DNA of 63,473 bases, filler included, from Collodictyon triciliatum (lineage: Eukaryota): NCBI GenBank assembly GCA_043381765.1. It is 4 parts of 4 records of this genome, joined end to end, with 100 filler letters (N's around TTAATTAATTAA, not from the genome) between each part and the next. Parts side by side here need not be neighbours in the genome. Positions count along the whole stretch, not along the records: positions 1 to 22,044 come from JBHJMP010001520.1; 3 more parts are not named here. One strand, 5' to 3'. Each line of letters opens with the position of its first letter. The stretch's first letter is position 1. Positions 16,411 through 19,280 of the stretch are shown here, piece after piece. Made by a program: the position numbers and the translations under genes. The notes under the pieces are model-generated. The model searched no databases, was not told the origin of the DNA, and saw nothing but the letters and a program-made list of their open reading frames with translations.

Positions 16411-16670
16411 TTCACTGACCGAACGGTTAAATCGGGACGGTGCTTAGGGTCAGTGACAGGAGCGCGCCGTGTCATAGTTTCGGGAGTCAGCCGTCTGACT
16501 TTCCAGAAATAGAAATCAATACATTACACTAGTTTTTTTATTCTTCCTTTGCGTGTACCCTCCATTATTACTTTACTGGAAGGGGTATACCAGCTTTCGA
16601 TTGGCAAACTTGGTGCGCTCGTATCCAAGGTCTCACCACTTTTTTCACAAAGATCGTGTAGTGGTGAAGA
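16411..16670 (-). ncRNA. Candidate Fanzor omegaRNA scaffold / element right end
   Basis: This GC-richer tract lies immediately 3' of the Fanzor ORF and has stacked inverted repeats: 16633-16640/16660-16667, 16609-16613/16625-16629, 16556-16564/16577-16587, 16485-16490/16495-16500 and 16412-16420/16448-16456. The position matches where Fanzor/TnpB omegaRNAs lie. Boundaries are inferred. Confidence 0.55.
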
Positions 16671-16692
16671 CTGCCAGGAAAGACCCGACAGC

Positions 16693-18569
16693 CTATTTTT
16701 TAGAGGAAGGTGCAGGCATATTTCGAAGGATTGGAAGAACTTTGTTGAGTATACTTTTAGCGCTGATAAATTCCCTTGCCAAGAATACACTTTGTTTGCT
16801 TTCTGAGCGATTGCATTCTTTACATATGAGACATCTATACACCATTTTTTGTATTTCCCTTCGGTGTTATACATTCCAGTTCTTTTTTGCAGTTGCGGCA
16901 CATCTTGGAGGTTCTAAATTCATCTACACTAACTGTTTCAGAACGCTTGGATAGTATTTTTCGTAATCCTCTTGCGATTGTTGCCATAAAATGGTTCATC
17001 TGAGATTTCTGCTCCAGTCTCCATACACCAGTACAACACCATCGCCGATTGTCTTTTCGATTCGGTCCATAAACAATGGTTCACTTCTTTTTGTATTAAC
17101 ATACTGCATCCATCTCATCTTTCGAAAAGTTACTTGTTTATAAAATCTGGAAAGTACTATCCGGAATCATAATTCCACAGATACATATTTTCAGAATTTT
17201 TCATAATCGACCGTGCATGAATTATGTTCACTCAGTTCTGTCTCTAATCGATTAAAGATGCTCTTGATGTCTTAAACCGCTGATTCTCTTCAAAAGTCCT
17301 GTGGCCAAAAGAAACAGCACTTTGAAAATCTATTGCCATGCATATAGCTGAAGCCTTGTACTTTATTTTTCGTGCAAGAGTATTTTGTGATTTTTAAGAG
17401 ATTTGCTTTCATGTCTTGTTTGATGTGCCGTGTAACGTGATTTCTTACCTGTCTCATCCATCATGTAAACCAAATTAAACTTGCCTGCGTGCACTCCAAC
17501 TTTTTTTTGTCGCTAATAAAGATAACTGCTCTTCGGAAGGTTCATCTATACAAACATATTCTTGAGTTTTTTGATTAAATTGGATTTCGAATTTGAAATA
17601 GCTTTCTTTTTCAAACAATAATGACACCGCCAAACCGTCTGTTTGTATCATGCATTTGAAATTCTAGTCTGTTCGATGAAAGACTCTCTTCATTTCAAAG
17701 AAATTATGCCATAGTGTCTCTTTGCATCCTGATATATTCTTCAGTAATAATGTTTTCAAGACAATACTAATAGATCTATCAAACATGCAGTATCTAGAGT
17801 AATATGACATGGTATATTGTTAGTTTTTATAGTGATTGGTTGAAACAGTTTGGCTCCAATGTCCTCAAAAAATGCGATTCATGTAAATCAGACATGGAAT
17901 GTACTTATTCGGATTGACTTTGACGTCATATTCGATACCATTTACAATATCGCTGGGAATGATATGATGCAAATGCATTATAGCCCAACCTTTTTATTGT
18001 TCAGTATTTCGAGTTTCTTGAATATGGCTTTTTTTTTAACTTTCGTAACTCTGCCTTTTAAATAGCTTCCGTAATATTCTTATCTTCAGGAACTGTTTGA
18101 TTTATAAAGCGCAGTAGCCTCTTATCAAAATGCTCCTTAATGTTACTATGATAAGCTGTTAACATTTGCTTCGCCAAGTGCGGTAATGTATGAGACAGTC
18201 TAACCAACAGAAAGCGTTCTTCTTGGGATAAAAGGAATCGAAAATTATTGAGATAAAAAAATCATCATGTCTTTTCACATATCTGATCTTTTTAAACTTG
18301 CGGGTATATCTTGTGAAACTATTCCGAATGTCTTTAAAGCGTACAAAAAACACATTTCATCGGTTGTTGGGACTTGTTGTGATTTCAATATGTAACATAT
18401 TACATACAGATAAGTGTCGGTAACCAAATTATGACACAATAAAACCGTATCGTTGATTTTGTCGTAGTCATAAGGATTCTTTACAATCGACTCTATATGT
18501 TTTCACATTTCAGTAGTCTGGTTTTACAGACTTTACATTCCCAAACTCAAGACGTTTTCTTTTCTTCAT
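16693..18569 (-). pseudogene. Fanzor1 (eukaryotic TnpB-like RuvC RNA-guided endonuclease), decayed with stops and frameshifts
   Basis: Translation across frameshifts: MKKRKRLEF...IESIVKNPYDYDKINDTVLLCHNLVTDTY...HLAKQMLTAYHSNIKEHFDKRLLRFIN...IEYDVKVNPNKYIPCLIYMN...LWHNFFEMK...IQTDGLAVSLLF (17634-17642)...VGVHAGKFNLVY (RuvC-I DPG position, 17483-17491)...FRKMRW...VYGDWS (17011-17025)...VDEFRTSKMCRNC (RuvC-II Glu plus CxxC, 16890-16924)...CLICKEC...LAREFISAKSIL (RuvC-III RD position). Motif order and ~620 aa span match Fanzor1. Confidence 0.88.
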
Positions 18570-19280
18570 CTGAAAGTTTTTGTTTTACTTTTTCCTTTAA
18601 AAAACTGCTTAGTTTTCAATTTTAATAAAACTTAAGCCAATTAGTCAATTGGTCGATAATAAAAATGAACTCAATTCAGTTAAAATTAAGCATCTACCGA
18701 GACTCTCAAATTATGCACATTTTGGCAAACAAACACACAACGTTTTTTTTATAAATGATTTAAGACAAAATGCTGAGAGCCGATTCGGCAAGTTCGAAAG
18801 GATGGCCATATAGCCATTGGGACTGAAAGTCAACATATCGGCCCCAAACAACATGATTACCGTCGCAAGTGTGGATAGTATGCTTTTTTGAAATGCATAT
18901 TTGGTAGAGGGTTTATAGGGTGGGTTCTGTCTGGGCCAAGGCAAGGCTTGTTGTAATTTTTGATTTTTTGTATTAATATTACATAATGGAAAACAAAATA
19001 CAAATTGATTACATGAATAGAATGATATTATTAAGTATTTTTAATCTTATAATATAAACTAATCACACTATTATATTATTCAGGTTGCTTCTTGGATTCA
19101 TCAAAGCCCCTGCTTTCGTCAATCCAGATTTAATTCGATGGTTGTCTGTGCAATAAACTGTTATTTATGGGTATACTTCCGTTGTATAAAAAGCGTTGTA
19201 CCTTGAAAGGGATGAAACCAAGTTCGTCACAACCTTTGCAATGAAGTTTATCCATTTACAGGCTGAATGAGACCGAAGAG

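Follow-up and report, generated by a model that had tools for sequence, protein, structure and literature searches.

A decayed Fanzor1 gene from Collodictyon triciliatum and its relatives in freshwater giant viruses

The window analyzed here is a stretch of 63,473 nucleotides of DNA, filler included, from the eukaryote Collodictyon triciliatum (GCA_043381765.1), in which four parts of four records are joined end to end. Its minus strand carries a broken gene of about 1.95 kb (18570..16623, from the start codon of a basic MKKRKR N-terminus to the last alignable residue) which, as judged from its sequence, is a fossil of the RNA-guided nuclease Fanzor1, that is, a dead and previously undescribed member of an already known family. 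This copy was very probably brought in by a Tc1/mariner-type element, whose transposase and ends were then lost, and was left to decay neutrally. Catalogues already list thousands of Fanzor1 genes from eukaryotes and their viruses, with dead copies among them; the relic is in itself an ordinary fossil that matters little. What interests most is that it is kin to a very large clade borne by giant viruses: a cellular relic sister to such a clade is one more data point for the virus-mediated spread of transposons and a possible host clue.

Identification of the pseudogene and its assignment to Fanzor1

No long open frame exists on the minus strand across approximately 18570-16620; instead, the conserved motifs are distributed across three frames (Table 1). 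The motif set and its order are nevertheless, at the level of the translated sequence, far above chance. An exhaustive HMMER search among 1.84 billion proteins with a 200-aa read-through of 16693-17292, taken in a single frame (frame 0) with X at the stops, recovered 670 proteins at E<=1e-3, of which 34 reach E<=1e-10. Ranking first, the 634-aa protein P0001 (E 2.5e-24) is the closest intact protein found, and tblastn of P0001 against the whole window returned four collinear segments that place residues 110-603 onto 18258..16705 (sum E 1.7e-57). A basic stretch like that of the window copy also starts P0001 and other relatives (e.g., MKRKKADK), and we infer for it a role in nuclear import. A word-indexed search of longer proteins with the 81-aa zinc-finger piece yielded 17 candidates, none of which scored, and comparison of the region with the window by blastn and tblastx found no second copy of the gene there.

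Table 1. Features of the Fanzor1 pseudogene on the minus strand (residue numbers follow P0001)
Feature	Position in window	Strand	Remarks
Basic N-terminus MKKRKR (NLS-like)	18553..18570	-	Frame 1 translation; the frame stops after 19 codons
HFDKRLLRFIN, N-terminal (REC-like) half	18100..18132	-	Aligns to HFITRLLRFIN of P0001
TDGLAVS	17622..17642	-	T318, D319 and G320 invariant in the family alignment
RuvC-I VGVHAGK	17480..17500	-	D372->H (catalytic Asp) and P373->A, both in invariant A1 columns
Insertion of ~38 codons	17250..17364	-	Between RuvC-I and the next helix; a frameshift at either edge in the window
FRKMRW		-	Minus-strand translation, before YGDWS
YGDWS, canonical RuvC-II position	17011..17025	-	Gly where ordinary TnpB carries the catalytic Glu
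DEFRTSKMCRNC	16889..16924	-	Alternative RuvC-II Glu kept, TS pair, first zinc-finger CxxC; E530, S534 and C537 kept
CLICKEC, second half of zinc finger	16813..16833	-	C564 and C567 kept
RuvC-III RE (in AREF) replacing invariant RD	16771..16776	-	R580 kept, D581->E
Candidate remnant of the first guide-RNA hairpin	16636..16669	-	Covariance model R1, 1.9 bits, E 2.2 within 551 bp; not significant, a lead only

The family assignment is carried by comparison with solved structures. Against the PDB, P0001 retrieves the Fanzor1 proteins of Spizellomyces punctatus (SpuFz1; 8GKH, 9CEU-9CEZ) at E 9.2e-37 over its residues 14-607, of Parasitella parasitica (PpFz1; 9CF0-9CF3) at 7.2e-34 and of Guillardia theta (GtFz1; 9CER-9CET) at 7e-16, and no other chain at E<=1. 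Likewise, a profile built from the alignment of 19 full-length relatives (A1) matches these three at E 2.8e-82 to 3.1e-66 and no other chain, including any TnpB or Cas12 chain, at E<=0.01. The three proteins thus belong to the same family as P0001, and they share the same motif order (TDG, DPG, GDWS, xEFRTS-CxxC, CxxC, RD). In contrast to them, the window copy is broken, and its RuvC-I and RuvC-III Asp are replaced by His and Glu, respectively; its identity to them is low, with lone pieces reaching only E 0.01-0.9. Even so, pieces of the window match the solved structures at collinear positions: the piece from FRKMRW to YGDWS has SpuFz1 857-902 as its top match (E 0.04 among 22 listed, 0.013 when lengthened with X at the stops), the DEFRTS piece has PpFz1 1144-1182 (E 0.023; the counterpart in PpFz1 is DEFRTSSFCPKC), and the RuvC-I piece finds SpuFz1 744-807 at E 0.92, the last of seven matches.

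The arrangement of the catalytic motifs agrees with this assignment. The Fanzor1 signature has been described as an Asp, a [TS][TS]xx-C4 zinc finger and an RD, in that order, with an extra conserved Glu (Bao & Jurka 2013, PMC3627910). All of these positions are found in sequence in the window copy (VGVHAGK, RTSKMCRNC, CLICKEC, ARE), where the TS and the four Cys are retained and both Asp are changed. Further, in Fanzor proteins the canonical RuvC-II Glu is replaced by Gly or Pro and an alternative conserved Glu stands just ahead of the zinc finger (PMC10530073), a relocated residue that is essential according to Jiang et al. (PMC10530073). The window fits this rule, with a Gly in YGDWS and, 34 residues further, a Glu in DEFRTS (G496->E530 in P0001 numbering).

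These features also bear on whether the gene could come from another TnpB-derived group, either Fanzor2 of the IS607 type or a contaminating prokaryotic TnpB. The sole Pfam signal obtained from nine single-frame pieces is indeed the generic TnpB/Cas12f zinc-ribbon PF07282 (E 0.011; 16.3 bits, below the cut-off of 26.3). Against such an origin stand the recovery of just the three Fanzor1 chains by both PDB searches, the Fanzor-like combination of a Gly at the canonical site with a relocated Glu, the absence of a serine recombinase (the IS607-type TnpA) from a six-frame Pfam scan of the flanks, and a eukaryotic context with exon-like gene pieces. On the PDB and motif results we regard this alternative as excluded. 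As for PF07282, its cut-off is reached by only three of 14 intact relatives. Pfam-based annotation is thus nearly blind to the subfamily typified by P0001, and relics of this kind need frameshift-tolerant searches seeded from metagenomic relatives.

A first-pass annotation, made from the sequence alone, had proposed a decayed Fanzor1 element at 16411-18805 and listed its motifs from MKKRKR to RuvC-III. The family and the motifs, in the order given, on the minus strand and over three frames, are borne out, as is the similarity to Fanzor proteins on which the proposal was made to depend, through P0001 and from there to SpuFz1. The range is too wide, taking in some 200 bp of flanking DNA unrelated to the gene at either end.

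Decay and loss of function

A frameshift-aware protein-to-DNA alignment written for this analysis places residues 27-625 of P0001 on 18496..16623, with 234 of the 575 aligned codons identical (40.7%). It requires nine frameshifts and six in-frame stops, in addition to two stops inside an unaligned insert. When re-aligned to the metagenomic fragment P0004, which is closer to the window copy (54.2% identity, 109 of 201 codons), the insert proved to be a homologous insertion of about 38 aa in a third frame, which refines the count to 10 frameshifts and six in-frame stops. The first 19 codons, which sit in another frame ending in a stop, contribute one extra stop and one extra shift. Accordingly, the pseudogene has no single ORF of ~600 aa or more. 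A search of the read-through with the A1 profile gives E 7e-147 (hmmsearch); this value is circular, the path having been chosen on an A1 member, and is not used as support.

The active site is affected as well. The invariant columns of the A1 alignment include D372 and P373 of the DPG motif, E530 of xEFRTS, and R580-D581. The window copy retains 22 of the 29 invariant family columns, and among those lost are D372, P373 and D581. The catalytic triad is therefore not intact, with E530 kept and two of the three residues changed; this rules out an active enzyme, not descent from Fanzor1.

Could the gene still be functional, its breaks being introns, programmed shifts or assembly errors? Eukaryotic Fanzor genes can have introns (PMC10530073), and six of the 11 frameshift sites lie beside homopolymer runs of at least five, such that some of them could be sequencing errors, a count that tells against the degree of decay proposed here. 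However, the remaining five frameshifts lie away from homopolymers, the six in-frame stops fall within well-aligned conserved blocks, and two invariant catalytic residues are substituted; none of these, whether shifts, stops or catalytic substitutions, can be read errors. Moreover, because homology is continuous across the break points, these are not intron boundaries. A functional gene is on these grounds practically excluded. The pseudogene is dead on several counts, and today it has neither a product nor a function. An intron in the insertion at 17250-17364 was considered separately and dropped, given that the insertion is conserved at the protein level with P0004 and that homology spans the candidate splice sites.

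The first-pass description of a frame broken by stops and frameshifts, with HAG for DPG and RE for RD, holds throughout, the changes falling in columns invariant across the 19-protein alignment. Of the three catalytic residues in the DPG, E and RD that it proposed to check, the window copy keeps only the Glu, both Asp being replaced, while all three are intact in the A1 relatives. Its label of a dead non-autonomous copy stands for the death of the gene, on account of the frameshifts, stops and catalytic changes. As to its non-autonomous nature, no element ends were found, and the copy may have been either a mobile unit that lacked a transposase or the stump of a larger element.

Giant-virus relatives, their transposon and guide RNA, and phylogenetic placement

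The closest intact relatives of the window copy lie in transposons of freshwater giant viruses, with about 41% protein identity to it. A scan of IMG/VR with P0001 identified five giant-virus loci with genes 49-88% identical, and a scan with the A1 profile gave 469 confirmed stretches from 476 pattern matches, the best 80 of the 469 being kept and corresponding to 79 distinct loci. In all, 84 viral loci were fetched, some of them the same contigs fetched twice, and each of the 84 has an open frame no shorter than 496 aa. A scan of metagenome contigs with another alignment (A2) gave 28 pattern matches and no confirmed one. The presence of Fanzor1 in giant viruses has been reported (Saito et al., PMC10432273), and the intact relatives that the first-pass annotation had expected in such viruses do exist, if at a considerable distance in protein identity.

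Two of the viral loci (L001 and L003) have in common a 3.3-kb unit, 74% identical between them, with TA-flanked inverted ends that are each about 32 bp long (CACCCTTGAAC...). This unit carries a divergent 346-aa HTH+DDE_3 transposase next to the Fanzor1 gene. In L001 (3631-6952), the Fanzor1 gene of the transposon has a GC content of 48% as against 35% across the whole 11.9-kb locus, and the element looks compositionally foreign to its virus. Directly beside the transposon of L003 lies an ORF of 1018 aa (6992-10048, minus strand), which may be mRNA-capping-enzyme-like. The architecture of L001, L003 and L009, with a DDE transposase and Fanzor1 between TA-flanked inverted ends, is that of the Mariner/Tc1-type Fanzor1 elements, to which PGv-1 of Phaeocystis globosa virus and PUl-1 and PUl-4 of Pythium belong (Bao & Jurka 2013, PMC3627910), PGv-1 having been compared by its description. 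Fanzor-only elements and degenerated copies are also known from the same source (PMC3627910). The window copy differs from PGv-1-type elements in that neither ends nor transposase survive, and we infer its membership of the mariner type.

At the 3' ends of the viral Fanzor1 genes lies a conserved structured RNA of about 140 nt (alignment A4 of 53 distinct loci; e.g., L015:5795-5936). It extends over the last codons of the gene and stops exactly where the element does, at GGTG with an invariant TA behind it. Compensatory changes are seen in five of its 14 predicted pairs and occur in the first hairpin. This RNA is probably the guide-RNA scaffold and the TA the mariner target duplication. A covariance model built from the 53 loci (R1) recovers four held-out loci where expected, namely L005, L011, L003 and L001 (E 8e-20 to 1.8e-4), and misses L009. 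With such a well-defined 3' RNA and exact element ends, the viral relatives are therefore candidates for compact RNA-guided nucleases. TnpB of the IS200/IS605 elements (e.g., ISDra2) is a RuvC nuclease whose guide, the omega RNA, comes from the 3' end of the element. The same mechanism may be presumed for the intact ancestors of the window copy, in keeping with the structured 3' RNA that ends at the element end in the viral relatives. Unlike TnpB, they would have had a relocated Glu, a carrier with a eukaryotic-type transposase rather than TnpA, and an NLS-like N-terminus.

A FastTree phylogeny built on 154 rows joins the window copy to P0004 (support 98) inside an 82-row clade (support 98) that contains all 65 distinct viral sequences. 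A "quick" IQ-TREE phylogeny of 49 sub-sampled rows (every third row within the clade and every fifth outside it, the gappy P0005 being dropped) recovers the same pair (97, starred) as sister to a group with L001, L002, L009, P0001, P0002/P0154 and P0155/P0159. As the metagenomic rows of the trees have no taxon labels and the viral rows were picked by similarity, the trees give the nearest labelled relatives, which are viral, and no direction of transfer.

The insertion of about 38 aa is common to the window copy, P0004, P0168, P0172 and P0173 and is lacking in every viral relative examined; going by the alignments, it sets a branch apart. Of 499 candidates from a further search, 13 proteins belong to the P0004 branch, most of them fragments on contigs of 0.5-1.4 kb. 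Three of the 13 (P0003, P0171, and P0175), on NCBI-sourced contigs of about 0.5 kb, are predicted as short proteins that share 60-79% identity with the window copy; the closest, P0171, has 79% and 71% identity to two of its segments. Some fragments of the P0004 branch are frame-broken, and P0003 enters the same wrong frame as the window copy at a different shift point. These findings point to a repeat that is decaying in multiple copies in one or several cellular genomes. Tentatively, and with far less confidence than we place in the Fanzor1 assignment, the window copy, P0004 and the other insertion-bearing fragments might constitute a cellular branch within a Fanzor1 subfamily otherwise found by the hundreds in freshwater giant viruses, in which case the fossil would record transposon traffic between the lineage of this eukaryote and those viruses. 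If so, it could mark present or past hosts of these uncultured giant viruses.

Origin of the copy and its surroundings in the window

By analogy with characterized Fanzor1 proteins (PMC10530073, PMC10432273), an intact protein of ~630 aa would enter the nucleus, bind a structured RNA transcribed from the 3' part of the element that encodes it, and cut DNA matching the RNA guide with a RuvC site composed of the RuvC-I Asp, the relocated Glu of xEFRTS, and the RuvC-III Asp. Its gene would most likely have come in with a Tc1/mariner-type element that moves by cut and paste, as in the nearest intact giant-virus relatives; the transposase and the element ends would then have been lost and the remainder would have decayed neutrally.

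Several observations weigh against this history. A search of the window with two viral DDE transposases (tblastn) found no transposase remnant, its best match (E 0.34) lying inside a von Willebrand A gene, which agrees with the first-pass statement that no transposase is adjacent. Terminal inverted repeats and a TA target-site duplication were likewise not found, only chance-level matches being obtained around the gene, with the 3' flank and with the viral TIR. A Tc1/mariner origin therefore leans on relatives at ~41% identity, and even among these a transposase relative is present within the fetched flanks of just 19 of the 84 viral loci. The covariance model, run over the whole window with default filters, gave nothing significant (best E 0.085, at an unrelated site). 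Finally, the sister relation to the viral subgroup in the IQ-TREE phylogeny has an SH-aLRT of 90 and is not starred. When the covariance model was run on 16300-16850 with filters off, its best matches had E 0.99 (plus strand) and E 2.2 (minus strand).

The alternative to a free-standing cellular transposon is that the pseudogene is the last recognizable piece of an integrated giant-virus segment, i.e., an endogenous viral element. Every labelled close relative is on a giant-virus contig, with 469 of the 476 IMG/VR pattern matches encoding a relative, and HMa-1 in a Hydra contig provides a precedent (Bao & Jurka 2013, PMC3627910). HMa-1 (Hydra magnipapillata) and ESvi (Ectocarpus) are likewise cases of Fanzor1 in a cellular assembly with virus-borne relatives (PMC3627910), but the genes that flank them are viral (PMC3627910), whereas the flanks of the window copy consist of cellular genes and a LINE fragment. 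Comparison of the whole window with five viral loci (L001-L005, with 5-kb flanks) by tblastx gave only low-complexity matches outside the pseudogene, none of the 66 scanned ORFs has a giant-virus hallmark by Pfam (although heavily decayed viral genes could escape both Pfam and tblastx), and nothing viral appears in the six-frame scan of the flanks. Furthermore, the window copy and P0004 form a branch of their own with a private insertion rather than being nested within a viral clade, and several independently decayed fragments in other assemblies fit a multicopy cellular repeat. An integrated viral segment is thus not supported by the flanks, and we regard it as unlikely, if conceivable for a very old insertion, the favored explanation remaining a gene copy delivered by a Tc1/mariner-type element.

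The six-frame Pfam scan, which covered 2 kb upstream and 0.55 kb downstream of the pseudogene, detected nothing but a zinc-binding tail from a LINE reverse transcriptase (zf-RVT, E 7.5e-07), located just upstream on the plus strand at 19489-19719. Adjoining this fragment is a long microsatellite whose translation is a GKERK/FPFLS repeat (the two together spanning 19267-19719). A later insertion of the microsatellite or LINE may have removed the 5' part of the element.

The window as a whole is eukaryote-like. Matches to Pfam were obtained in seven of the 66 scanned ORFs of at least 100 aa, and all are to cellular families. Exon-like pieces of ArfGap, protein kinase, Mis12, presenilin and aldehyde dehydrogenase genes are present, as are a Myb gene, a VIT-vWA gene and a piece of a GDSL lipase. 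The protein-kinase and aldehyde-dehydrogenase domains (29965-31198 and 48893-49754, minus strand) are each split over two ORF pieces, which points to introns and therefore to a cellular nuclear context. The VIT and von Willebrand A gene, 550 bp downstream of the pseudogene, is an uninterrupted frame of 593 codons (14289-16070, minus strand) and the sole long intron-free gene nearby. Among the public sequencing runs listed, none of which is an RNA run, 11 hold at most a 0.12 share of the sampled words of the window. The window has a GC content of about 38%, with N gaps and arrays of simple-sequence repeats; at 22045-22825, 51300-51830 and 56100-56720, long arrays of short-peptide repeats are broken by runs of N, which we read as assembly gaps in satellite-like DNA.

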